Source of the DNA: Longimicrobiales bacterium | GTDB taxonomy: Bacteria; Gemmatimonadota; Gemmatimonadetes; Longimicrobiales; Gaopeijiaceae | NCBI GenBank assembly: GCA_965202985.1 | Contig: CBDBCF010000002.1 | Coordinates: 192,001-256,000 of the forward strand | Reading direction: 5' to 3' | DNA length: 64,000 nucleotides | The notes under the pieces: generated by a model | What the model saw: the letters and a program-made list of their open reading frames with translations, nothing else | The model's database searches: none | What the model was told of the DNA's origin: nothing | In this document: positions 1 to 14,016 of the stretch, piece after piece | How positions within the stretch are numbered: the first letter of the stretch is position 1 | How the letters are laid out: each line of letters starts with the position of its first letter | Made by a program: the position numbers and the translations under genes

Positions 1-1245
1 GAAGAGGCCGCCGCCGAGGGTGCTCGGGCCGTGGTCTTGGAGATCGAGACGCCGGGGGGGCGAGTGGACGCCGCGGAGCGGATCGTGGGCGCCGTGAGCC
101 GCTCGTCCGTGCCCGTATACGCCTACGTGAACATGTACGCCTATTCGGCCGGGGCCATGATCGCCCTGGCGGCCGAGCAGGTCTTCATGCGGACGGGCGC
201 CGTGATGGGGGCCGCCACGCCGGTCGACGGCCAGGGAACCAAGGCGTCCGAGAAGGTCGTCTCGGCGATGCGGGGCCGGATGCGGGCGCTGGCCGAGGCG
301 CGCGGACTGGACCCCCGAGTGGCCGAGGCGATGGTGGACGAGGAGCTGGCCATCGACGAGGTGGTGGAAGAGGGCAAGCTCCTGACGCTGACCACCGAGG
401 AGGCCGTGGAGCTGGGGTACGCCGTCGCGGTGGCGGACTGGGACGACGTGATGGGCGAGATCGGGCTGGGAGCGGCGGGGCCGGCCGGAGCGGGAGCGGT
501 CGCCGGCGGCGACGGACCCGGGGCCGTGACGGTCGTGGACGCCCGCGTGAACTGGGCGGAGCGGCTGGTGCGCTTCTTCACCAGTCCGGTGATCGCGCCG
601 TTCCTGTTGTCGCTGGGGTTCCTGGGGCTGATCGTGGAGATCAAGACGGCAGGGTTCGGCTTGGCGGGCGCCGCCGGGCTCCTGTCGCTGGCGCTCTTCT
701 TCGGGGCGCACCTGCTGGTGGGGTTGGCCGGCGCCGAGGACCTGATCCTGGTCGGCGTGGGGGTGGTCCTGGTGCTGGTCGAGATACTGGTCGTGCCGGG
801 CTTCGGGATCGCCGGCATCGCCGGGGGGGTGGCGCTCGTCGGCGGACTCTTCATGACCCAGATCGGCAGCCTGCCCACGCAGCAGGACTTCACGCGGGCG
901 GCCGCGGTCCTGAGCACCACGGTCGTGCTGGTCGTCCTGACCACGTGGGCGTTTCTGCGGACCTTGCCGCGCAACTGGCGCCTGCGCCGAAGCGGCGTGC
1001 TGCTGCCCGAGTCCACCGACCGGGACGAGGGGTACATCTCCGCAAGCGTTCGGCCCGACTTGGAGGGCGCGCGCGGCGTGGCGATCACCGCGCTCCGCCC
1101 CGCCGGGATGGGCCTCTTCGGCGACGAACGAGTGGACGTGGTGTCCGAAAGCGAGTGGATCGAAGAGGGCACGCCGATCCGAATCCTCAGCGCCGAGGGC
1201 TACCGTCACATCGTGCGCGCCGTGAAGTCCCATCAGGCGGAGTAG
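1..1245 (+). CDS. nfeD: NfeD-family membrane-bound serine protease (long form), 5' truncated by the window edge
   Basis: ClpP-like TPGG and AYSAGA motifs, several TM helices and a C-terminal OB-fold (ALRPAG...VDVVSE); directly upstream of floA. Confidence 0.9.
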   Translation, partial: EEAAAEGARAVVLEIETPGGRVDAAERIVGAVSRSSVPVYAYVNMYAYSAGAMIALAAEQVFMRTGAVMGAATPVDGQGTKASEKVVSAMRGRMRALAEARGLDPRVAEAMVDEELAIDEVVEEGKLLTLTTEEAVELGYAVAVADWDDVMGEIGLGAAGPAGAGAVAGGDGPGAVTVVDARVNWAERLVRFFTSPVIAPFLLSLGFLGLIVEIKTAGFGLAGAAGLLSLALFFGAHLLVGLAGAEDLILVGVGVVLVLVEILVVPGFGIAGIAGGVALVGGLFMTQIGSLPTQQDFTRAAAVLSTTVVLVVLTTWAFLRTLPRNWRLRRSGVLLPESTDRDEGYISASVRPDLEGARGVAITALRPAGMGLFGDERVDVVSESEWIEEGTPIRILSAEGYRHIVRAVKSHQAE

Positions 1246-1339: not shown

Positions 1340-2329
1340 ATGAACGAGACTCTCCTTTTCCTGGCCGTCCCCGCGCTCCTGGTCGTGGCGATCATGATCC
1401 TGGGCTGGGCCATCCCCGTTCGCCTGTGGATCGAAGCCACCTTCTCCGGCGTGCGCCTGGGGCTGGGCAGCTTGGTGGGAATGCGCCTGCGCAAGGTCAG
1501 CCCGCCCGCCGTGGTGCGGCCCTTGATCGCGTCCACCAAGGCCGGCTTGCCCCTGGACGTGTCGCATCTGGAGGCCCACTACTTGGCCGGCGGCGACGTG
1601 GACCGGGTGGTGCGCGCGCTGATCAGCGCCGACAAGGCCAACATCGAGCTTCCCTTCCAGCAGGCGGCGGCGATCGACTTGGCGGGCCGGGAAGTCTTCG
1701 AGGCCGTGCAGGTCTCGGTGAACCCGAAGGTCGTGCAGACGCCGCGGGTGGCAGCGATGGCCAAGGACGGCATCCAGCTGATCGCCGTGGCGCGGGTCAC
1801 CGTGCGGGCCAACATCAATCGGTTGGTCGGCGGCGCCGGAGAGGAGACGATTCTGGCGCGCGTGGGCGAGGGGATCGTGTCCACGATCGGGTCCGCCGAC
1901 ACGCACAAGGCGGTTCTGGAGAACCCGGACGCGATCTCCAAGACCGTGTTGCAGAAGGGGTTGGACTCGGGGACCGCCTTCGAGATTCTGTCGATCGACA
2001 TCGCCGACGTGGACGTGGGGAAGAACATCGGCGCCGAGCTGCAGACCGACCAGGCCGAGGCCGACAAGCGGGTCGCCCAGGCGCGAGCCGAGGAGCGCCG
2101 CGCCATGGCGATGGCCAAGGAGCAGGAGATGAAGGCCAAGGTCGAGGAGATGCGGGCCGAGGTCGTGGCGGCGGAGGCGAAGGTCCCGCTTGCGATGGCC
2201 GACGCCTTCCGCAGCGGCAACCTGGGCGTCATGGACTACGCCAAGTACCGCAACGTGGAGTCGGACACCCACATGCGCCGCGCGATTGCCACCGGCGACC
2301 CGGACGCGCCCTCCGAATCCGAGTCCTAG
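1340..2329 (+). CDS. floA: Flotillin-like protein FloA (YqfA/UPF0365)
   Basis: [35 protein letters not shown] and [15 protein letters not shown] signatures. Confidence 0.95.
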
Positions 2330-2371: not shown

Positions 2372-5155
2372 GTGGACCTCCAGATCCTGGTCATCGTCGT
2401 TGTCGTGGTCCTGTCGATCCTGGACGCGGTGATGAAGAAGGCCAAGAAGCGCGGGCTGGAGCTGCCCCAGAGCGACGAGCCGGCGGCCACTTCGGAGGTG
2501 GAGCAGGGGCACCCGCCACCTGTGCCCGGCCCGGACGCGGCGTCGCGGCCCTCCACGGCCGGCCCTCCGTCGGCGGGAAGGCGCCAGTCGGCGTTGGACA
2601 TCCTGGTCCCGCCGGAGATACGAAAGGAGCTGGAGGACTTGGTCTCGGGCGGGGGGCCGAGGGCCGGGCAAACGACGTCTCCGCCGACGCAGGCGTCTGG
2701 ATCGGGGGAGCTCTCGGGGACTTCCATGCCGTCGGATCGGCGTTCACTCCCGGCACCTTCCGAGGCGTCTGCGTCGTCCACCGCAGATCCTTCCTGGGAA
2801 AAAGAGGGTTCGCTAGGCGAGTGGCTGGCTCCTGACCACGGCCGCAGCGCGCCACAGGTCGAAGTGCGTTCAAGGGTGCCTCGTCCCTTGAACGTGCATG
2901 CCCCAGAGCCTCGCCCGGAGCGTCGAGCGGTACCGAGCGTGCCCACCACGCCCGGGTCGCCGGCTCGGCCTCACCCCCCACTCGCCAGCAGGCTTGGCTT
3001 CAGCACGATGTCCGACCTGCGACGCAACATCGTTGCGCGAGAGATCCTAGGTGCGCCCGTGGCGCTGCGGGACGACGGCCAATGGCGCGGAGAAGCAGGA
3101 TCCCGGCCCTTGGCGACACCCTTGGTGCCGCCGCCTACTTCTCCAGAACCCCCATCTTCGCCTCCCTCGACGCCCTCCGACCCCCCAACGCCGAAGCCAC
3201 CACAGCCGGAGTCGGAGGACGACAAGACACCGATCTCGGTCGGCGGAAAACGTCGTGACCCTCACAAGCCTTCGGACGAGACACCTGCGAATAGGGAGCG
3301 CCTGTCCGGCTTTCGCAGGCCAGAACTGCGGTGTCGCGAGACCTCCGACTCGCATTGGGAAGTCGTAGTGGACTTACCGAACGCGCCCAGCCTACCCAAG
3401 ATATTGCTTGACGGTCAACAACTGCCGACCTCCGACCGATGCTGTCCGCTTCCCAGCCTTGACCGCAACATCGTTGCGGTGCTGGATGGGGGCAGCACGG
3501 TCGAGCTGCTGACCCCTGGCTTGCCTCTGATCTTCAAAACGGCAAAGCACTGGAAGTCCGGCGGACGGCGCGTTGGTCGAGTCACGCGCGGCTATTTCGT
3601 GGTGATCGTTCCCGAAGGCTGGCGGCGCGAGGGTCCTCCCCCTCCGGTTGCTCCCACGAAGGCTACGGCTCCTGGGTACCAAGCGCATTACGAGTACTGG
3701 GACGGCCGCAGCAACGACCGAGTGCGCTTCGCAGGACACGATCTGCCTATGGCGAACGACATTGAGATTCTCAAAGGTTCAACTCTCTTTGACGATGATC
3801 TGGATCACGGCCCCCTTTTTGTCGGCGACCCGCCGAGATTGACGAATTCGAACGCCTTCGCGTGGGCGATGGTGGGGGAGGAAGGAGTTCCCGACGGTTG
3901 GCGATGCCGCTTCAAGCCGTCGAAACACCAACTGGCCGACCTGCTGGAAGGCCGGGAGGGCTGGTTCTTTGTGCGACTGTACGATGCGAACGTTGCACTC
4001 CAGGCGAGCACCGACTTCCGTTATTCCCGTTGCTTGGCTCAGATCCACGTGAACAACCAAGCCTACTCGGGCACGACGATACTGCTTCCAGCCGAGACTG
4101 GCCACGATCTCACTCGCCTGGCATTTATTGACCGAACGGGCAGTCCAGTCAATCCCTGGTACTCACGCCTCCAGCCTACAGTCGTTGATGCGATTGCGGA
4201 CAAGCATGCTGACGACGTGCGTGTGGAACTAAGGTCGCCAGCCGGCAGAATACCAGTAAGGGTCCAACTGCCCCGACTCTGGTGGCGACTTGTGGGTGAC
4301 GATACCGAGCACGATTGGCAGTCCACCGCATTTCGCTGGGTGCCCCAAGAGTACCATAGACTCGCCGAAATCGGGACAACGATATGTCTAGATATGCCCC
4401 GCCATGTGCCGGATGTCAGCTGTGGCTTCGACGGTGACACCACACGTCGGTATCGTCGATCAAAATCAGGTTACTTCGAGATTCCATTGGACGAGTTCTT
4501 GGATGAACTGGACGACTTCTTCGACGAACATGCACCCCATGTGGAATCCCGAGATCGAATAGCCCTTGGCGTTACCTCTAATCTGGTGTCTCGCAACGTG
4601 CCCATCGTTCACGTACACCGCGAACCTGTCGAGAACGGTCCCATGGACTACAACGAGCCTATGGATATTCCCCGCTCGGAGGACGATGACCATGAATTCG
4701 TAGCTGTCGAGCAGAGACCCCCGCCACCAGATCCCATAACGCAACGAGACTGCGAGGAGTTTCTCGTCTGTCACTGCGACTCCCATGATTTTCACAGTTG
4801 GGAAGAGGCTAGAAGCAATGGCGTTGTGAACATACCGTACTTGACGCGATTCCCGATGGGATTGCCATCACCGGGTTCCCGACTTTGGGTGTGCTTGTCA
4901 GGCAGAGGCTATGTCGGGGTGGGGATCGTTGCCAATCGGAACCGTGGCCAACCCCAGCGTCCGGCGACTAAAGATGGACCGTGGACCACCGAGGTGCCGG
5001 TCGACTGGTACGACACCCTACCCGAGACCAAGATGCTTTTCGGTCCCGAGATTATGCTTGTTTCGGCTGTTGTGCCTATCAGGAACGATGGACCCAAGTG
5101 TCGCGAAACAGTTGAAGCCCTCAAGACAGGGCTCAAGTGGCGCATCGATGCCTGA
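2372..5155 (+). CDS. Chimeric 927-aa protein: N-terminal TM/YqfB-like region, Pro-rich linker, large beta-rich region, C-terminal PUA/EVE-like domain
   Basis: N-terminal hydrophobic helix; LRRNIVAREILGAPVALR motif at ~aa 216-233, which normally ends the third gene of nfeD-floA operons; the ORF continues without a stop into lower-GC sequence. Confidence 0.75.
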   Translation: MDLQILVIVVVVVLSILDAVMKKAKKRGLELPQSDEPAATSEVEQGHPPPVPGPDAASRPSTAGPPSAGRRQSALDILVPPEIRKELEDLVSGGGPRAGQTTSPPTQASGSGELSGTSMPSDRRSLPAPSEASASSTADPSWEKEGSLGEWLAPDHGRSAPQVEVRSRVPRPLNVHAPEPRPERRAVPSVPTTPGSPARPHPPLASRLGFSTMSDLRRNIVAREILGAPVALRDDGQWRGEAGSRPLATPLVPPPTSPEPPSSPPSTPSDPPTPKPPQPESEDDKTPISVGGKRRDPHKPSDETPANRERLSGFRRPELRCRETSDSHWEVVVDLPNAPSLPKILLDGQQLPTSDRCCPLPSLDRNIVAVLDGGSTVELLTPGLPLIFKTAKHWKSGGRRVGRVTRGYFVVIVPEGWRREGPPPPVAPTKATAPGYQAHYEYWDGRSNDRVRFAGHDLPMANDIEILKGSTLFDDDLDHGPLFVGDPPRLTNSNAFAWAMVGEEGVPDGWRCRFKPSKHQLADLLEGREGWFFVRLYDANVALQASTDFRYSRCLAQIHVNNQAYSGTTILLPAETGHDLTRLAFIDRTGSPVNPWYSRLQPTVVDAIADKHADDVRVELRSPAGRIPVRVQLPRLWWRLVGDDTEHDWQSTAFRWVPQEYHRLAEIGTTICLDMPRHVPDVSCGFDGDTTRRYRRSKSGYFEIPLDEFLDELDDFFDEHAPHVESRDRIALGVTSNLVSRNVPIVHVHREPVENGPMDYNEPMDIPRSEDDDHEFVAVEQRPPPPDPITQRDCEEFLVCHCDSHDFHSWEEARSNGVVNIPYLTRFPMGLPSPGSRLWVCLSGRGYVGVGIVANRNRGQPQRPATKDGPWTTEVPVDWYDTLPETKMLFGPEIMLVSAVVPIRNDGPKCRETVEALKTGLKWRIDA

Positions 5156-8100
5156 AACACACGACATCCTCGAGTGGACAGCGACGATACGTCGTCGCTA
5201 CGAAAACTACCTAAGAACGCTGTTCTACTTCAAGGACGCTGGGCTTCGGGCGTCCTTTCGCAACGCTCTTCAGAAAGGCGACGGCCTCCTCAAGGGCCCA
5301 TTTTCCGAGGAAGATCAGGGATTTCTATACGGCGCAACGCCGAGGGACATGGCTGAAGCCGCATTTCCGCAGCGGAGTGCTGATCTGTGGCCAGCACTGC
5401 TTGACAAGCCTCTCTACACTCATCAGGAACAGGCTTTGCAGAACGTGCACTGTCGAGGGCGTAATGTGGTCGTAGCTACCGGTACCGCTAGTGGCAAGAC
5501 TGAGAGTTTCTTGTATCCGATTCTATTCTCTCTATATCGCGAGCACCTGGAGAAGAAGCTGGAACGTCCTGGCGTACGCGCCATGATACTGTACCCGATG
5601 AACGCACTGGCCAACGATCAGAGAGACCGGCTGGGCGCAATCTGCGACGCACTGGAGAAAGAAAAATCTCAGTTCCGCTTCACCTTTGGCCAGTACATTG
5701 GCCAAACACCGGAAAACTCCCGGGACAGTTATCGGAATGCTCCGGTCCGAGCAGAAGAACGCCTCCCGGGCGAGATGGTCTTTCGAGAGGACATGCGCCA
5801 ATATCCTCCTCACATCCTGCTGACGAACTACTCGATGCTTGAGTACTTGTTGATCCGACCGCAGGACAGCTCGTTGTTCGACGGTGGCAGAGGTTCTCGC
5901 TGGAGGTTTATTGTGTTGGACGAGGCTCACCAGTACCGCGGCGCAAGGGGTATGGAGATGGGCATGTTGCTGCGGCGATTGAAAGAACGCGTGCGCGACG
6001 GAGGCCGAACCGATGGATTTCAATGCATCGCGACAAGCGCGACGATTTCCACCAAACAGAGTAGCACGGAGAAGTTGAATGTCGCCGATTTTGCATCGGA
6101 GTTGTTTGGCGCTCAGTTTAGCGACAGCGACATAGTGTTCGGATCACGAGTGGCCGACAGGCGTGACACGACGCGGCGCCATCACGTATTTGTTCGTGCG
6201 CTGGAAGGGGCGTTTGTGGTTCATGAACAAGGTGAGGACAGGATTGTCTTGAACAGGACGGCAGGTGCAGACGGTCGCAACGGCTCAACACCGCTGGAGA
6301 TTGCACTGTGTCGAGAGTGTGGTCAACACTATTACGTGGGGCGGGTAGTGGGTGGGAGGTTGAGCGAAGCCGTCAGGGACCCAAGCCACACGGCCTTCGG
6401 TGTAGAATTCTTCCTGCCGTCCAATCGCGGAGATCAGTTGCTTTGTCGGCAATGCGGCCGGATTGGAGTTTTGAGGGCGCCGCCGATGTGCGATTGTGGC
6501 GCAATGGTGCAGGTAATGACCTGTCCTTCACACGGGAAGCGGGCTGACCAGCTGGCAAAGTGCGAGTCGTGCGGATACGGACGGGGTGGCGTGGGCGATC
6601 CGGTTCAGGAAGTTGTCCACGGTCACGACGGCCCGAACACCGTTATTGCCACCACGTTGCATGAGCTTCTGTCGGCCGAGTCACGGAAGATCCTTGCGTT
6701 TGCGGATAGTAGGCAAGAGGCAGCGTTCTTTGCCTGGTACCTTGAAGATACATATGACAAGATCCGTGACCGGAATCTAATGTGGAGGGTTGTGGAACGA
6801 ATGGGTGCTGGGGCGGAGGCGCTGTCGCTCTCGGACCTGGCGGATGGAATGTCGCGGCTCTGGGGCGAGCACAGACTGTTCCGGGCATCGGACACTGAGC
6901 TGGCTAGGAGGCGCCAGATCTTGGGGGCGATCTTGGCGGAGGCCATGACGTCGGAGAGACGCTTGTCGCTCGAAGGGGTCGGATTAGTGAAGTGGTACAC
7001 GGAGTTGCCCGACGACGTCGAGATGCCACGGACACTGTCGGAGAGTGCCTGGGGTCTTGACGAGGAAGAGGGCAGACGACTAGCCCTTAGGCTTGTGGAC
7101 GAGTTCCGAAGGAACCGCGCGGTCGAGTTGTCGGAGGGATATCCGGTCTGGGGGTGCGTTTCACCGTGGCCGCAACGGGCGTTCGGTGCAGGACCACCCA
7201 GAGGAAGAAGGAATGTGGCCGAATGGGGTAGTGCCGGATCAGGGATCGTCCAGCATTTCTTGACGAGGGTGTGGCTTGACGACGGGCCGGGCTCGGCGGA
7301 GGTTGAAGCAAGCAAGGCCGGTGTTGAGTTGATGAAGCAGCTGTGGAGAGCGTTGCGTGCTCGGGACCGCAGGGTGCCCGCTTCGGAGCGGTTTCTGATT
7401 GGAACGGGTGCTGGCAAGTATCGAGTTTCGCCTGAGTGGCTGCGGATTGCACGAGTAACGAATGGAGGGCTGTGGGAGTGCGGGATGTGCGGCGCCGTCA
7501 GCCCTACGAACATTCGAGATGTGTGCGACAGGCGTGCGTGTCCGGGCCGTCTTCGGTCGGTGGTACCGGGGCGGCTGGACCAGAACTACTATCGGGAGTT
7601 GTACGCCAACGCTAGCATGCCATCCCGGCTGCGGTCGGAAGAACACACTGCGCAGATCGACAGCGAGGAGGCGAGGATACGGCAGAACGGCTTCAAGCAG
7701 GGCGATATTCATGTGCTGAGCTCCTCGACTACGTTCGAAGTCGGCGTCGACCTAGGGGACCTTGACGTCGTGTTTCTGCGCAACGTACCACCGGAGGCGT
7801 TCAACTACACCCAGCGGGTCGGGAGGGCGGGGCGTCGCGACAGTCCCGGCGTGGCTGTTACGTACTGCCGTCGGAACCCGCACGACTTGTATCACTACGA
7901 GAATCCAGCGCAACGAATCATCAAAGGGGAGATCAGGCCGCCACGGCTGCGGATGAGCAACGAGAAGATCATCCGTCGGCACATGACAGCTGTTGCACTT
8001 TCCGCCTTTTTTCGCGAACGGCCGAATGCAGACCGTTTTTCGCGGGTGAAGAGGTTTGTGGGAGATTGGTTGAAGCCAAGCGGCACGTCTTCGTTTCGGG

Positions 8101-9386
8101 AGTTCTGCACACAGGATCGGTCTCTGGAGGCGACGCTTCGGCGGGTGGTGCCGAACGATGTCCACGAAGCTGTCGGACTCGCAGACGGAACATGGATCGA
8201 AGAAGTGTCGGGATCCAAAAGTCGTCTGGCAGAGATGGAAGCCGAGGTTTGTGGAGACTACCGTACAATGAATGAAGCGAAGGATAGGTTGATTGACAAG
8301 CAACCAAGGTCATGGACTAAGCGGGTGGAGAGAATCGAGCGACGGATGAGGGGAATCACCTCGGAACGCACGCTGAATTTGCTGTCGCGAAAGGCTGTGA
8401 TACCGAAATATGGATTTCCAGTTGACGTTGTGGAGCTCGACACACACGGGGAAAAGGGCGTTGCTCTTGCCCGTGATTTGTCGCAGGCAATCGCGGAGTA
8501 CGCACCAGGGAGTTCCGTCGTAGCGAAGAAGCTGGAGTGGAAGTGCGCTGGGCTGAAGGTCGTTCCTGGATGCCAGTTGCCCGTTCGACGGTATCAGTAC
8601 GATGATGCGCGAAATTTTCGCCAAGAGGAAAAAGCCGGAACGGTGTTTGCGGATTCGTTGGAGCGGGCGTACGTGTCGCCGGTGTTTGGGTTTGTAACAC
8701 CTCATATGGGATCACAAACGCCCAAAGGACGTTCCCGTCGCTTGTACACGACAAGGCCGTTTTTCCAGGGAGTGGGGAAGGAAACGGGGACCGACGCCAG
8801 GGTGGTGGCAGGCGTGCGCATAACCAAAGCGCAACCGGGAACACTGGTCATTTTGTGCGAAGGCAAGGCTAGAGCGGGATTCCACATATGTCTCACGTGT
8901 GGTAGCGGTTTCAAGGAGCTGACGGTGCCACACAAGTCGCCATATGGCGGTAGTTGCAACGGAACGCTTGAACGGCTGTCTCTCGGGCACGAGCTGGCCA
9001 CTGACGTGGTTCGCTTGCAGTTTCCCGGGCTGAGCGGCGAATGGGACGCGTACTCGGTGGCGTACGCTGCTGTTCTTGGCGTGGCAAAGGCCTTGGACGT
9101 TCCAGATACAGATCTGAACGTCACGATTACGGCCGGCGAACGCCCGACAGAGACCGGGATCGTATTGTACGACAACGTGCCGGGTGGGGCTGGCCTGGTA
9201 GCACAGCTCGAAGACGAGCCGTTGTTCCGAGAAGCATTGGAAAGGGCATGCGAACGCGTTGAAGGAGGTTGCGGATGCGACATGAGTTGCTACGGCTGTC
9301 TGCGAAGCTATCGCAACCAGTTCGCACACCCGCATCTGAACCGGAAGAGAGCAAGGTCGTTCCTTATGGATGTCGCGACAGCGTGA
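5148..9386 (+). CDS. Large DEAH-box SF2 helicase with C-terminal DUF1998 (YprA/DruE-like), 1412 aa
   Basis: TGTASGKTE, YPMNALANDQ, DEAH, SAT, FADSRQEAA, STTFEVGVDLG, YTQRVGRAGR and C-terminal CGCDMSCYGCLRSYRNQ; ATG at 5148 overlaps the end of the upstream ORF. Confidence 0.92.
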   Translation: MPETHDILEWTATIRRRYENYLRTLFYFKDAGLRASFRNALQKGDGLLKGPFSEEDQGFLYGATPRDMAEAAFPQRSADLWPALLDKPLYTHQEQALQNVHCRGRNVVVATGTASGKTESFLYPILFSLYREHLEKKLERPGVRAMILYPMNALANDQRDRLGAICDALEKEKSQFRFTFGQYIGQTPENSRDSYRNAPVRAEERLPGEMVFREDMRQYPPHILLTNYSMLEYLLIRPQDSSLFDGGRGSRWRFIVLDEAHQYRGARGMEMGMLLRRLKERVRDGGRTDGFQCIATSATISTKQSSTEKLNVADFASELFGAQFSDSDIVFGSRVADRRDTTRRHHVFVRALEGAFVVHEQGEDRIVLNRTAGADGRNGSTPLEIALCRECGQHYYVGRVVGGRLSEAVRDPSHTAFGVEFFLPSNRGDQLLCRQCGRIGVLRAPPMCDCGAMVQVMTCPSHGKRADQLAKCESCGYGRGGVGDPVQEVVHGHDGPNTVIATTLHELLSAESRKILAFADSRQEAAFFAWYLEDTYDKIRDRNLMWRVVERMGAGAEALSLSDLADGMSRLWGEHRLFRASDTELARRRQILGAILAEAMTSERRLSLEGVGLVKWYTELPDDVEMPRTLSESAWGLDEEEGRRLALRLVDEFRRNRAVELSEGYPVWGCVSPWPQRAFGAGPPRGRRNVAEWGSAGSGIVQHFLTRVWLDDGPGSAEVEASKAGVELMKQLWRALRARDRRVPASERFLIGTGAGKYRVSPEWLRIARVTNGGLWECGMCGAVSPTNIRDVCDRRACPGRLRSVVPGRLDQNYYRELYANASMPSRLRSEEHTAQIDSEEARIRQNGFKQGDIHVLSSSTTFEVGVDLGDLDVVFLRNVPPEAFNYTQRVGRAGRRDSPGVAVTYCRRNPHDLYHYENPAQRIIKGEIRPPRLRMSNEKIIRRHMTAVALSAFFRERPNADRFSRVKRFVGDWLKPSGTSSFREFCTQDRSLEATLRRVVPNDVHEAVGLADGTWIEEVSGSKSRLAEMEAEVCGDYRTMNEAKDRLIDKQPRSWTKRVERIERRMRGITSERTLNLLSRKAVIPKYGFPVDVVELDTHGEKGVALARDLSQAIAEYAPGSSVVAKKLEWKCAGLKVVPGCQLPVRRYQYDDARNFRQEEKAGTVFADSLERAYVSPVFGFVTPHMGSQTPKGRSRRLYTTRPFFQGVGKETGTDARVVAGVRITKAQPGTLVILCEGKARAGFHICLTCGSGFKELTVPHKSPYGGSCNGTLERLSLGHELATDVVRLQFPGLSGEWDAYSVAYAAVLGVAKALDVPDTDLNVTITAGERPTETGIVLYDNVPGGAGLVAQLEDEPLFREALERACERVEGGCGCDMSCYGCLRSYRNQFAHPHLNRKRARSFLMDVATA

Positions 9387-9401: not shown

Positions 9402-9914
9402 TCATCCGTCGAGGCTTCCTTCGCCCTCGGCAGGATCCGGGCGGCGTCCTTCCGTCTTCATGACTGTGGGTTTCACCGGATCGCCTTCTGGCGTCTCGGA
9501 TCTGCCTGTCGACTCGCCGCCGACCGGGTAGTCCTTACCCGTTTCCCGCACCACGAGCGGGCGGGGAGACGATCGCTCGTCAAGCTTGGCGTTGACGGCG
9601 CTGACCGTTGCCTTCAGCTCGCCGATCTCCCGGGCGAACTCGGCGATCTTCCCGAGCAGTTCTGCGTGGTTGGCACGAGCCCGCTCTTCTTGCCGGTCGA
9701 TACGATGTCCGAGGGCTTCGTCGCCCTTGTCGATCCGCTGTACGAGCCTCTCTTCACTCTTGTCGATCCGGTGTACGAGCCTCCCTTCGAGCTTGTCGAT
9801 CCGCTTTCCGGTGTCGGTTCGCAGAGCCCAGAAGAGACTGGCCGCGGCAACGACGACGGAAAAGACGGTGACGAAGACGTCGCTGGACAGGAAATCCACC
9901 ACGGTCTCGTCCAT
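9402..9914 (-). CDS. Membrane-anchored coiled-coil protein with 11-aa repeats, 170 aa
   Basis: ATG 9914; N-terminal TM helix followed by four RID(K/R) repeats; this is the 3' part of track ORF 9402..11333. Confidence 0.75.
   Translation of the reverse strand: MDETVVDFLSSDVFVTVFSVVVAAASLFWALRTDTGKRIDKLEGRLVHRIDKSEERLVQRIDKGDEALGHRIDRQEERARANHAELLGKIAEFAREIGELKATVSAVNAKLDERSSPRPLVVRETGKDYPVGGESTGRSETPEGDPVKPTVMKTEGRRPDPAEGEGSLDG
9693..9803. repeat. 33-bp period coding tandem repeat
   Basis: CTTGTCGATCCG at 9726, 9759 and 9792, with a degenerate copy at 9693. Confidence 0.9.
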
Positions 9915-10027: not shown

Positions 10028-12784
10028 CTACCTCCCTTCGGCCGCCAACTTCCGCAGCACCGTGTGGAGGATGCCGCCGTTGCGGTAGTACTCCACCTCG
10101 ACATCCGAGTCCAACCGGGCCGTCGCGCTGAACTCGATCCGAGCGCCGTCGGGGCGGGTGGCCTTCACCTCGACCTGGCTGCGGCGCCCCAGCCCGTCGG
10201 CGATTCCCGCGATGTCGTAGGTCTCGTCGCCGCTCAGCCCGAGCGACTCGGCGCCTTCGCCCTCCGCGAACTGGAGAGGCAGCACGCCCATCCCCACCAA
10301 GTTGGAGCGGTGGATGCGCTCGTAGCTCTCGGCGATCACCGCGCGCACGCCGAGCAGCAGCGTGCCCTTGGCCGCCCAGTCGCGGGAGCTCCCAGTTCCG
10401 TACTCGCGCCCGGCGATCACGATCAGGGGCGTCCCAGCCGCCCGGTAGCGCTCCGCCGCCTCGAAGATCGGCACGACGTCGCCGCTGGGGACGTGCCGGG
10501 TCCAGCCGCCTTCCTTGCCGTCGAGCAGCAGGTTGCGCAGCCGCACGTTGCCGAAGGTGCCCCGCATCATCACTTCGTGGTTCCCGCGCCGAGCGCCGAA
10601 GGTGTTGAAGTGGATCGGCGTCACGCCCAGCCCCTGGAGGTACTGGCCGGCGGGCTCGTCCCTGGGAATCGCGCCGGCGGGCGAAATGTGGTCGGTGGTC
10701 ACCGTCTGGCCCAGCAGCGCAAGCACTCGGGCGTCTCGCACGTCCTCGGGTGCCGGAGCCTCGGAGCTCATCCCCTGGAAGAAGGGCGGGTTGCGGATGT
10801 AGGTGGACTCGGCGTCCCACTCGTAGAGGCTCCCTTCCTCCGGCAGGGGAAGGGCGCGCCAGTGCTCGTCGCCGTCGAACACGCTGCCGTAGCGCTCCCG
10901 GTACATCTCCGGCTTCAGCGACGCCGCCACCGTGTCGCGAACCTCGCCGGGCGACGGCCAGATGTCGGCCAGGAAGACGGGCACGCCGTCGCGGTCGCAG
11001 CCCAGCGGCTCGTCCCGCAGGTCGATGTCGATTCGCCCAGCCAACGCGAACGCCACCACCAGCATCGGCGACGCAAGGTAGTTGGCGCGCACCAGCGTGT
11101 GGATGCGGGCCTCGTAGTTGCGGTTCCCCGACAGGATCGACGCCACGACCAGCCCGTTCTTCTCGACGGCCTCGGCCACCGGCCCGGGCAGCGGTCCGCT
11201 GTTGCCGATGCAGGTCGTGCAGCCGTAGCCGACCAGGTTGAACTTGAGCTCCTCCAAGTACCGCATGAGCCCGGCCGCCTCCAAGTAGTCCGTGACCACC
11301 TGCGAGCCCGGCGCCATGCTCGTCTTCACCCACGGCTTCGGCTCCATCCCCAGCGCCCGCGCCTTCGTGGCCATCAGTCCGGCGCCGACCATGACCGACG
11401 GGTTGGACGTGTTCGTGCAGCTGGTGATCGCGGCCACCACGATGCTCCCGTCGCCGATCTCCATCCGCTCGCCGTCGATCTCAATCTCGACGCTGCGTCG
11501 AGCGTCGGGCGCCGTCCCGCCTTGCGGCTCGGCACCGTTGCCGGACGCGCCCGTCCTGCCGAACCCCGCTGGACGCAGCTTCGGCAGGTCCGTGGGGAAC
11601 GCCCGGTCGATCTCCGTCAGCGCGATCCGGTCCTGGGGACGCTTCGGCCCCGCCAAGCTGGGCACCACGGTCGAGAGGTCCAGCTCCAGGGCGGTCGTGT
11701 ACTCGGGGTCGGGGGTGTCGTCGGTGCGGAAGAGGCCCAGCTCCTTGGCTACCCGCTCCACGCGCTCGACGTGGGCGGGCTCCCGCCCGGTGCCCCTCAA
11801 GTAGCGCAGCGCCTCGTCGTCCACGGGGAAGAAGCCGACGGTGGCGCCGTACTCGGGGGACATGTTGGCCAGCGTGGCCTTGTCCGGCAGGCTCAGCGCC
11901 GACAGGCCGGCCCCGTAGTACTCGACGAACCGTCCCACGACCCCGTGGGCGCGGAGCATCTCGGTCACCCGGAGGACGAGATCGGTGGCGGTCGCGCCTT
12001 CGGAGAGCGCGCCGGTGAACTTCACGCCCACCACGTCCGGCAGGAGCATGTGGTAGGGCTGGCCCAGCAGCACCGCCTCCGCCTCGATCCCGCCGACGCC
12101 CCAGCCCACCACGCCCAGCCCGTTGATCATCGTCGTGTGGGAATCGGTTCCGACCACCGTGTCCGGGTAGGCCAGCGCGCCGTCGCCGTGCTCCCGCCGG
12201 TGCACCACCGACGCCAAGTACTCCAGGTTGACCTGATGCACGATCCCGGTGCCCGGGGGCACGACCCGGTAGTTCTCGAAGGCCTCCTGCGCCCAGCGAA
12301 GGAGGGCGTAGCGCTCCCGGTTCCGCTCGTACTCTCGGGCGACGTTCTTCTCGAAGGCGTAGCCGGTCCCGAAGAAGTCCACCTGCACCGAGTGGTCGAT
12401 CACGAGGTCGGCCGGGACGAGCGGGTTGATGCGCCCGGGGTCGCCGCCCATCGCGCGGATGCCGTCGCGCATTGAAGCCAGGTCCACGACCGCGGGCACC
12501 CCGGTGAAGTCCTGGAGGACCACCCGCGTGGGCATGAACGGGAAGTCGGGGCGGGGACCGTCGGGCCGCCAGGAAGCCACCGCCTCCACGTCGTCGGGCG
12601 AGACGTGGCCGTCTCCTGCATTGCGCAGCACGTTCTCCAGCAGGATGCGGATCGAGAAGGGGAGGCGGTCCAGCGAGGGGACCACGCCGCTCTCTTCCAG
12701 GCGCGCGAGGCGGTAGAAGGACGCACGGCCCTCCGCCAGTTCGATAGCGGCGAGGGCGCCGAAGGGATCGGTGAGGCTTGGCAC
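10028..12784 (-). CDS. acnA: Aconitate hydratase A
   Basis: RVVLQDFTGVP, DLVIDHSVQVD, AAITSCTNTSNP, GYGCTTCIGNSG and GTGSSRDWAAKG; GTG start at 12784 inferred. Confidence 0.97.
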   Translation of the reverse strand: MPSLTDPFGALAAIELAEGRASFYRLARLEESGVVPSLDRLPFSIRILLENVLRNAGDGHVSPDDVEAVASWRPDGPRPDFPFMPTRVVLQDFTGVPAVVDLASMRDGIRAMGGDPGRINPLVPADLVIDHSVQVDFFGTGYAFEKNVAREYERNRERYALLRWAQEAFENYRVVPPGTGIVHQVNLEYLASVVHRREHGDGALAYPDTVVGTDSHTTMINGLGVVGWGVGGIEAEAVLLGQPYHMLLPDVVGVKFTGALSEGATATDLVLRVTEMLRAHGVVGRFVEYYGAGLSALSLPDKATLANMSPEYGATVGFFPVDDEALRYLRGTGREPAHVERVERVAKELGLFRTDDTPDPEYTTALELDLSTVVPSLAGPKRPQDRIALTEIDRAFPTDLPKLRPAGFGRTGASGNGAEPQGGTAPDARRSVEIEIDGERMEIGDGSIVVAAITSCTNTSNPSVMVGAGLMATKARALGMEPKPWVKTSMAPGSQVVTDYLEAAGLMRYLEELKFNLVGYGCTTCIGNSGPLPGPVAEAVEKNGLVVASILSGNRNYEARIHTLVRANYLASPMLVVAFALAGRIDIDLRDEPLGCDRDGVPVFLADIWPSPGEVRDTVAASLKPEMYRERYGSVFDGDEHWRALPLPEEGSLYEWDAESTYIRNPPFFQGMSSEAPAPEDVRDARVLALLGQTVTTDHISPAGAIPRDEPAGQYLQGLGVTPIHFNTFGARRGNHEVMMRGTFGNVRLRNLLLDGKEGGWTRHVPSGDVVPIFEAAERYRAAGTPLIVIAGREYGTGSSRDWAAKGTLLLGVRAVIAESYERIHRSNLVGMGVLPLQFAEGEGAESLGLSGDETYDIAGIADGLGRRSQVEVKATRPDGARIEFSATARLDSDVEVEYYRNGGILHTVLRKLAAEGR

Positions 12785-12978
12785 GGGGATTCGGCTCCTG
12801 GTCCGGGGGCGTCGCGACGGGTTGGACTCTGAAGCTAGCCACGAGCGAACGGCGGAACCGGCGGGCCCGAACGCGGACCCCGATCCCGTCCAGACGATTC
12901 TCCGGCCGTCCCGTTCCAACCACGCCCCCGACTTTACGGACCGGCATTGTCGCGCTAGACTCCCCCGCTCCCCAACCA

Positions 12979-13062
12979 GCCGAGGTGGCGGAACCGGTAG
13001 ACGCGAAGGTCTCAAAAACCTTTGCCCTTGCGGGCGTGAGGGTTCGAGTCCCTCCCTCGGCA
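12979..13062 (+). tRNA. tRNA-Leu (anticodon CAA)
   Basis: GCCGAGG/CCTCGGC acceptor stem, AAGGT-CTCAAAA-ACCTT anticodon arm, long variable arm, GGTTCGAGTCC T-arm; CCA not encoded. Confidence 0.96.
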
Positions 13063-13199
13063 TTCTGGACAACAGGTGGGCCTGGGGTCAATGCCGAGTA
13101 AGCCCGAGAGAGGCTTCGACCGCCTGCCCTTGATGCCGGGCCGCCGAATCAACGCGCCGGCCCGGGTCCTCGCGACGCCACCCCGGGCACCGAGCGAAG

Positions 13200-13605: not shown

Positions 13606-14016
13606 ATGCGATTTGCCGTCGTCATTCACAAGGACCCGAACAGCTGCTACGGGGTCACCGTGCCCGGGCTCCCCGGCTGCTTCTCCGCCGGGGACACGCT
13701 CGACGAGGCCGTCGAGTCTGCTTCGGAGGCCATCGCCTGCCATGTTGAGGGTATGCTGATGGACGGGGAAGCGGTCCCCGAGCAGCCATCCCTGGAAGAA
13801 CTCCAAGCGTGCAACGACTTCGAGGCCGGGACCTGGGCCCTCGTGAACGTCGACCTGTCGAAGCTGACAAGCGCGACGAAGCGGGTGAACATCACGATGC
13901 CGGCCCGAGTACTGGCGATCGTGGACGAGGCGGCCGTCAGGGAAGGCGACACGAGGTCGGGCTACCTGGCCCGTGCGGCGCTCAGCTACCTGAGGGACCG
14001 CCAGCCCGTCGGTTGA
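13606..14016 (+). CDS. hicB: HicB-family antitoxin with C-terminal RHH domain
   Basis: YGVTVPGLPGCFSAGDTLDEA and KRVNITMP...TRSGYLARAA. Confidence 0.93.
   Translation: MRFAVVIHKDPNSCYGVTVPGLPGCFSAGDTLDEAVESASEAIACHVEGMLMDGEAVPEQPSLEELQACNDFEAGTWALVNVDLSKLTSATKRVNITMPARVLAIVDEAAVREGDTRSGYLARAALSYLRDRQPVG

Follow-up and report, generated by a model that had tools for sequence, protein, structure and literature searches.

Anti-phage systems of the Druantia III-A type, which occur in E. coli and P. aeruginosa, consist of two genes, with the gene of DruH located upstream of that of DruE, a YprA-type helicase with an MZB domain. DruH contains tandem Ig-like domains as well as N- and C-terminal helical domains, to which an active site and the DruE interface have been attributed, and the accessible parts of papers from 2026 disagree on whether it acts as an exonuclease, a single-stranded DNA binder, a scaffold or a sensor. 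According to the available text of 10.64898/2026.05.13.724758, Druantia III-A defends without its PLD domains. A III-B or "type III-like" branch also has two genes, and its helicase is most often nuclease-less, as stated in the accessible text of 10.1101/2025.09.15.676423. Here, we describe a related locus in a 64,000-nucleotide (nt) stretch of a Longimicrobiales bacterium genome (contig CBDBCF010000002.1, positions 192,001 to 256,000; the whole stretch is referred to as the window), where the third gene of an nfeD-floA operon (gene 3) is fused in frame to the partner gene of a YprA/DruE-type helicase. The fusion is conserved and mobile and exposes a modular, probably membrane-bound Druantia-like variant.

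Results

The fused open reading frame (ORF; 2372..5155, + strand) starts with GTG and contains zero internal stops over its 927 codons. It is preceded by nfeD (1..1245, +; Pfam NfeD1b_N, NfeD_membrane and NfeD; the 5′ end is outside the window) and by floA, encoding a flotillin-like protein (1340..2329, +; PF12127 at E 2.7e-156, NF010186 above the cut-off). The initial annotation had recognized both genes and had proposed that the third gene lacks its stop around position 3090 and reads on into a helicase partner; the in-frame fusion is indeed real. The fusion protein has no Pfam or NCBIfam match, and the name yqfB used for gene 3 in that annotation is hence a positional label only. Comparison with sister genomes, which the annotation had suggested, showed that in three genomes of the same genus (G001, G002 and G003) gene 3 does stop, 9 codons past a shared C-terminal motif and at a position equivalent to about 3098-3100 in the window. 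When the 30 floA loci from the family and the order were scanned with a motif, gene 3 was recognized in 18, each time with a stop within 18 residues (one of these loci, L020, comes from an unpublished genome, G025); the 12 loci that the scan missed include the four of this genus, which were read directly.

Could an assembly or sequencing artefact have removed the stop codon? The evidence on this point consists of assembled contigs rather than raw reads, and one of them has gaps of unread frame. However, sequencing run X1, which may be the source sample, yielded one contig over 2233-10078 with 0 differences, and run X3, from another study and labelled as a sponge metagenome, yielded a contig (1951-3144) that bridges the junction with 47 differences and 3 gaps. 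The same fusion is found in two independent public proteins, P0002 (976 amino acids, aa) and P0003 (921 aa), whose cores are 64% and 44% identical to that of the window. An artefact is hardly credible. The fusion is carried by three such diverged proteins and by the contig of another study. Neither gene 3 nor the core occurs a second time in the genome that contains the window, and a scan of JGI metagenomes with the fused C-terminal part returned no relative; P0002 and P0003 are known as proteins alone.

Alternatively, the full fusion may be a minor product or be cleaved within its tether, with most of the partner made from an internal start such as TTG 3110, the codon singled out in the initial annotation. 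This codon has a short purine run upstream (duplex energy of -4.8 kcal/mol), and the NfeD protein encoded upstream contains a ClpP-like protease domain (Pfam). Yet, of the 20 start-like codons that lie in frame up to position 3400, six score better than TTG 3110, the annotated start among them, and the equivalent leucine, kept in P0002, is out of register in P0003. A stop codon would also be free to reappear if two products were made, but it is absent from all three fusions. We consider this scenario very improbable and expect that the fusion would be translated in full, from the promoter of the operon.

A single transmembrane helix (2378..2452, +; Kyte-Doolittle 2.84 at aa 3) opens the protein, and a basic stretch comes after it; by the positive-inside rule, the C-terminus of the protein should be cytoplasmic. 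The gene-3 part (aa 1-233; 2372..3070, +) is followed by the junction and a Pro-rich tether (aa 234-307; 3071..3292, +), which were delimited by the sequence, alignment A1 and the sister stop codons; no amphipathic helix is visible in this tether. The conserved core (aa 308-755; 3293..4636, +) and a swappable C-terminal slot (4742..5152, +) complete the partner. In an AlphaFold2 (AF2) model of aa 300-927 (mean predicted local distance difference test score, pLDDT, 85; 103 alignment rows), which is mostly beta, the core is predicted to form a run of tandem Ig-like beta sandwiches; Foldseek matched these best to multi-Ig proteins, with a low template modelling score.

The initial annotation did not recognize this architecture from any named system. 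In line with this, PADLOC, Pfam and NCBIfam have no model that spans the partner, and a PADLOC scan of the window protein and 9 relatives gave no DruH match. The core was nevertheless compared with the Ig part of DruH, which is present in the PDB sequence copy as 9tud. The hhalign program returned P values of 0.027, 0.0057, 0.033, 0.0046 and 0.49 in five set-ups, always in the same register (about partner 455-735 against DruH 462-740), while 5 of 20 shuffles also got P under 0.05 on sequence. The secondary-structure score was 16.3 compared with at most 2.8 in 20 shuffles, an agreement that any Ig array might show. Fold searches listed no DruH for the partner model, nor did they list it for a model of true DruH. 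Judging from these alignments, homology of the two Ig arrays is only suggested and somewhat more likely than not.

A profile search with the partner retrieved 1,228 clusters with E values of at most 0.001; proteins from the best 150 of these clusters and 7 earlier matches (157 in all) were examined. The corresponding loci are scattered over many phyla. One member (P0010, 1173 aa) carries two core copies in tandem. A search for longer homologues, limited to the range of 1709-4880 aa, gave one irrelevant match, and the ESM Atlas gave no usable match.

The helicase gene (5148..9386, +) starts with an ATG inside the end of the fused ORF, an overlap of 8 nt, and encodes a 1412-aa superfamily 2 helicase with DEAD, Helicase_C and MZB/DUF1998 domains (Pfam), in accordance with the initial annotation. 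The protein ends 27 residues past MZB and carries no fused nuclease and no C-terminal PLD domains. PADLOC matched it, in pieces, to DruE1 (502 bits) and DruE3 (485 bits), which, together with its position in a tree, bears out the suggested relationship to Druantia DruE. Helicases that accompany the partner family are ca. 1400 aa long, come from many phyla and are 52-61% identical to that of the window. In a FastTree analysis of 25 rows (long branches flagged, midpoint root, no repair-type outgroup) they form a clade of their own (12 rows, support 100), separate from DruE III-A (5 rows, support 100) and from the DruE I and ARMADA-like rows. The sister of this clade is a nuclease-less Clostridium helicase whose partner has 1069 aa. 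This pair is located on a plasmid (L115:3777-11662), and its partner has no PADLOC or Pfam match; profile comparisons of this protein with the core and with DruH were both negative.

Among 41 loci with the partner gene, 40 have room downstream for another gene, and in 34 of these 40 the helicase gene begins within 300 nt of the partner gene, mostly with the same 8-nt overlap. No third conserved gene recurs in the 41 loci.

To model a complex, partner aa 308-755 and helicase aa 340-830, a fragment chosen beforehand, were submitted in one job. The score was 0.72, compared with 0.00 for the best control. Among solved pairs, 116 of 157 attained this mark, as did 2 of 215 mismatched ones; with our own alignments, these figures hold only approximately. 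Contact agreement between runs was at least 92%, and the partner pLDDT was at least 81. In the predicted interface, partner residues ~685-722 contact helicase residues 680-687 and 737-758. The model thus supports binding of the partner to the helicase. A DruE-DruH structure exists as a preprint (10.64898/2026.05.13.724313), and likeness to it could contribute to the score; as far as its accessible text goes, the reported DruE-DruH interface uses a helical DruH domain that the window partner lacks.

The GC content at third codon positions (GC3) of the fused gene is 0.8-0.95 before about codon 120 and about 0.62 after it. The lower GC of the fused part had been noticed initially; the drop is confirmed, but it sets in near codon 120, inside gene 3, and not at the missing stop. 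The gene-3 part is a mosaic, its 5′ half being host-like and its 3′ half going with the cassette. Relative to G001, synonymous divergence (dS) of the window rises from 0.35 in the 5′ part to 1.38 in the 3′ part; the values for three pairs of unfused gene 3 are 0.88-0.96 and 0.70-1.27, respectively. P0003 and the unfused gene 3 of G001 share 143 of 145 residues over the 5′ part but 57 of 113 over the 3′ part; the alignments fall in disordered sequence, and all these estimates are rough. The 3′ gene-3 parts of the three fusions group together, and the fusions therefore probably share one origin. This pattern fits a single fusion event followed by allele replacement through homologous recombination within gene 3. 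Neither an integrase nor a target-site duplication was found; the longest word common to both ends is 11 nt and lies within the flanking gene. G002 carries an unfused copy of the partner-helicase pair elsewhere in its genome.

The right boundary of the cassette is at most about 30 nt from the helicase stop and is marked by a small gene (9402..9914, -; start placed by eye). This gene, whose product has a hydrophobic helix, contains three repeats spaced 33 nt (repeat D1) and matches L033 with 71% identity over 387 nt (blastn). It is found in G002 and absent from G003; its occurrence in G002 places it outside the cassette. The site behind gene 3 is variable: an aconitase-like gene follows directly in G003, the small gene follows in G002, and in G001 unfused gene 3 is followed by a giant repeat protein that exceeds 3,500 aa (L031:1-10785, -).

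These data bear on a neutral explanation, namely, that the cassette was inserted behind gene 3, where its own start and promoter disappeared, that the fusion has since been kept for expression and for the sake of an intact gene 3, and that the pair acts as a soluble complex, the long tether making the anchor irrelevant. The probable single origin of the fusions and the variability of the site suit this account, as does the failure to find a σ70-type promoter on the + strand between 2300 and 10100 in what was a weak scan; scans for promoters and terminators performed no better than chance. Retention of the fusion through divergence down to 44% core identity speaks against it, as do the N-termini of the relatives described below. 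We regard neutral capture as somewhat unlikely.

At least 60 residues precede the core in 135 of the 157 family proteins, and this N-terminal region (median 187 residues) is mostly low-complexity. By a helical-moment criterion, 94 of the 135 begin with a basic amphipathic helix; for internal windows, shuffles and long host frames, the corresponding counts are 1 of 135, 640 of 2700 and 85 of 1364, respectively. In six proteins, a transmembrane-like segment takes the place of this helix. These are the three gene-3 fusions, a pair of DUF4389 fusions (P0046 and P0108, 47% identical and probably the result of one event) and P0070, with a hydrophobic helix and a coiled coil. The amphipathic helix is thus missing precisely where a transmembrane helix has come in, which speaks against an irrelevant anchor. 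Soluble N-terminal captures, which favor the neutral explanation, exist as well: a PIN domain in P0063 and σ70 regions 2-4 in L096 (L096:5388-9461, where the helicase gene is next).

Judged by its N-termini, the partner family as a whole is probably membrane-attached by nature. Because most relatives start with an amphipathic helix and a disordered tether, the fusion appears to replace an anchor rather than to add one. The initial annotation was right that an imported helicase pair became fused to a host membrane gene, but the anchor was probably not a new acquisition: the gene-3 fusion looks like an anchor swap. Both the fusion and its relatives would accordingly be located at the membrane. 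The further proposal of the initial annotation, that DNA is sensed at flotillin microdomains where phage DNA enters, gained no support from the analysis.

The tail of the window partner is predicted to adopt an EVE/YTH (PUA-like) fold. Its best match is 1wmm (Z 8.8, root-mean-square deviation (rmsd) 3.3, 111 aligned residues), YTH structures score Z 8.3-8.6, and the top 34 rows of the search are all EVE/YTH/ASCH-type folds; AF2 pLDDT in this region is only 54-90. A weak PADLOC PDC-S11 match (E 9e-5) spans only aa 797-858, within the EVE region, and does not indicate membership. EVE-like tails occur in 5 members. Most other tails are eL13-like (151 of 188 when proteins and loci, which partly overlap, are counted together; 123 of 150 among proteins alone). 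eL13 is otherwise known from archaeal and eukaryotic ribosomes. Among the other tails, Pfam named ribosomal S5, S6 (two) and S17, NusB (present alongside eL13) and MacB, and matched NusG (E 0.003) and helix-hairpin-helix weakly; examples of S5, S6, S17 or NusB copies are L090:7146-10118, P0067, P0115, P0133 and P0153. Further tails look, by eye, S21-like, RNA-polymerase-delta-like and NusA-like. In L090, the helicase gene still follows the S17-tailed partner, and the tail is therefore not a read-through into a ribosomal operon. In a 1756-aa partner (L063:6555-11825, -), the core is extended by a weakly matched NusG-like domain and by a complete SNF2 helicase; the DruE-type helicase of this locus is broken into two frames. 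Both nucleic-acid binding and a decoy function are conceivable for the tails, and the EVE/YTH tail, if correctly modelled, would most likely read modified bases.

One can also envisage a housekeeping or surveillance helicase, acting in DNA repair or at transcription-translation blocks, whose tails dock onto RNA or ribosomes rather than sense phage. The majority of tails look like RNA-binding proteins, the neighbors of the family loci include no recurrent defence gene, and MrfA/YprA relatives work in repair, according to the accessible text of 10.1101/2025.09.15.676423. On the other hand, distribution is patchy (strong core matches in at least 6 of 314 family genomes, and scattered phyla), the GC3 of the cassette is low, and the helicase matches DruE models best and groups with Druantia-type helicases, albeit in a tree that had no repair-type outgroup. 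A housekeeping role is quite improbable.

To the right of the locus, the conserved flank is an aconitase-like host gene (10028..12820, -; named by eye, 5′ limit approximate), 87-88% identical in DNA to G002 and G003. Further on, a highly conserved 88-nt stretch resembles a tRNA gene (~12978-13065), and an ORF at 13606-14016 is HicB-like antitoxin (both by eye). Outside the window, the same genome encodes YprA-type helicases of 2255 aa (L123:8008-14775) and 1984 aa (L124:7232-13186); the former groups with an ARMADA-II-like reference and has a UvrD-like gene (by eye) next downstream.

Discussion

The interpretation that we favor, giving it somewhat better than an even chance, is that the pair is a compact Druantia-III-like defence module whose partner sits at the inner membrane and whose anchor was swapped for host gene 3. 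The partner would comprise a membrane anchor, a long disordered tether, tandem Ig-like domains and a swappable tail that binds nucleic acid or acts as bait. The last Ig domain would grip an insertion of the nuclease-less DruE-type helicase and hold it near the membrane; upon the appearance of invader DNA, or of a cue read by the tail, the helicase would be licensed to load and unwind DNA. In this genus, the usual amphipathic helix would have been replaced by the entire third gene of the nfeD-floA operon. This gene would retain its own motifs and at the same time provide the transmembrane helix, tether, start codon and promoter. The fused allele would then have passed between lineages through homologous recombination inside gene 3.

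Several points weigh against this interpretation. The fusion, the architecture, the coupling of the two genes and the mosaic are observed, and the folds and the partner-helicase binding come from models, but membrane location, trigger and defence are steps that we infer. An intact adjacent helicase is missing from 6 of the 40 loci, and the pair contains no recognizable nuclease, which leaves the clearance of DNA unexplained. The likeness to DruH is weak and depends on the alignment (P 0.0046-0.49). The amphipathic helix is assigned by a home-made heuristic in relatives that are not independent, and 41 of the 135 fail the criterion. With three membrane captures compared with two soluble ones (PIN and σ70), selection for an anchor is suggested, not shown. 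Finally, a DruE III-A fusion is reported as cytosolic in the available text of 10.64898/2026.05.13.724758.

A more ambitious reading, unlikely as a whole, combines these features into a membrane-tethered immune scaffold with two plug-in slots and a host gene as recombination handle. The N-terminal slot would set the place at the membrane where the system waits, a flotillin-operon protein directing it to flotillin domains. In the C-terminal slot, copies of host ribosomal or antitermination proteins would be decoys for phage take-over factors, and EVE would watch for modified DNA. Either cue would release the nuclease-less helicase, and the host membrane gene would spread the system between species without an integrase.

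A partner family that keeps only the Ig array and still, by the model, appears to bind its helicase would amount to a natural deletion experiment on DruH. The natural swaps of anchors and tails are ready-made chimeras for testing membrane position and tail identity against phage specificity. The locus also reveals a route by which a putative defence cassette joins a core host gene and spreads by allele replacement.

A literature search, with most subscription journals outside its reach, found no description of this architecture, which shares features with several known systems. In the accessible text of PMC13190303, SNIPE is a membrane-anchored anti-phage protein, and its homologues exchange N-terminal anchors that look like membrane proteins of the host. 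Only the design is alike: SNIPE combines DUF4041 and a GIY-YIG nuclease in a single protein, whereas the window partner has no Pfam match to either at E 0.1 and is modelled as Ig and EVE folds. DrmA of class 1 DISARM combines a YprA-type helicase with an EVE-like domain (7s9w, Z 6.3, rmsd 4.1, 109 aligned residues); unlike DISARM and ARMADA, the cassette has no methyltransferase and no second, BrxHII-like helicase, and its EVE fold is at the C-terminus of the partner. The nfeD-floA-yqfB (yqeZ-floA-yqfB) operon has the same order of nfeD, floA and a membrane-helix gene, but here the third gene runs into the partner and has no family match to B. subtilis YqfB, as judged by Pfam and NCBIfam scans.

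Druantia III-B resembles the locus in its two genes and usually nuclease-less helicase. The accessible text of 10.1101/2025.09.15.676423 describes it as DruE plus DruH and does not mention a short anchored partner with captured tails, although the supplementary tables of that work may list this clade. The comparison with III-B is by description, named III-B sequences being absent from our tree, where the helicase of one DruH locus grouped with III-A. Druantia III-A is similar in having a partner gene upstream of a YprA-type helicase gene with MZB, tandem Ig-like domains in the partner and partner-helicase contact. It differs in that the window helicase, of 1412 aa, is without PLD domains and belongs to a separate clade. 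A model of DruH has both helical domains, which are reported to carry the active site and the DruE interface in the accessible literature; both are missing from the window partner, which is mostly beta over aa 300-927. In their place, this partner has an anchoring helix and a low-complexity tether at its start and a swappable tail at its end. The pair would work like a compact Druantia III, presumably with an anti-phage role, yet it falls outside III-A.

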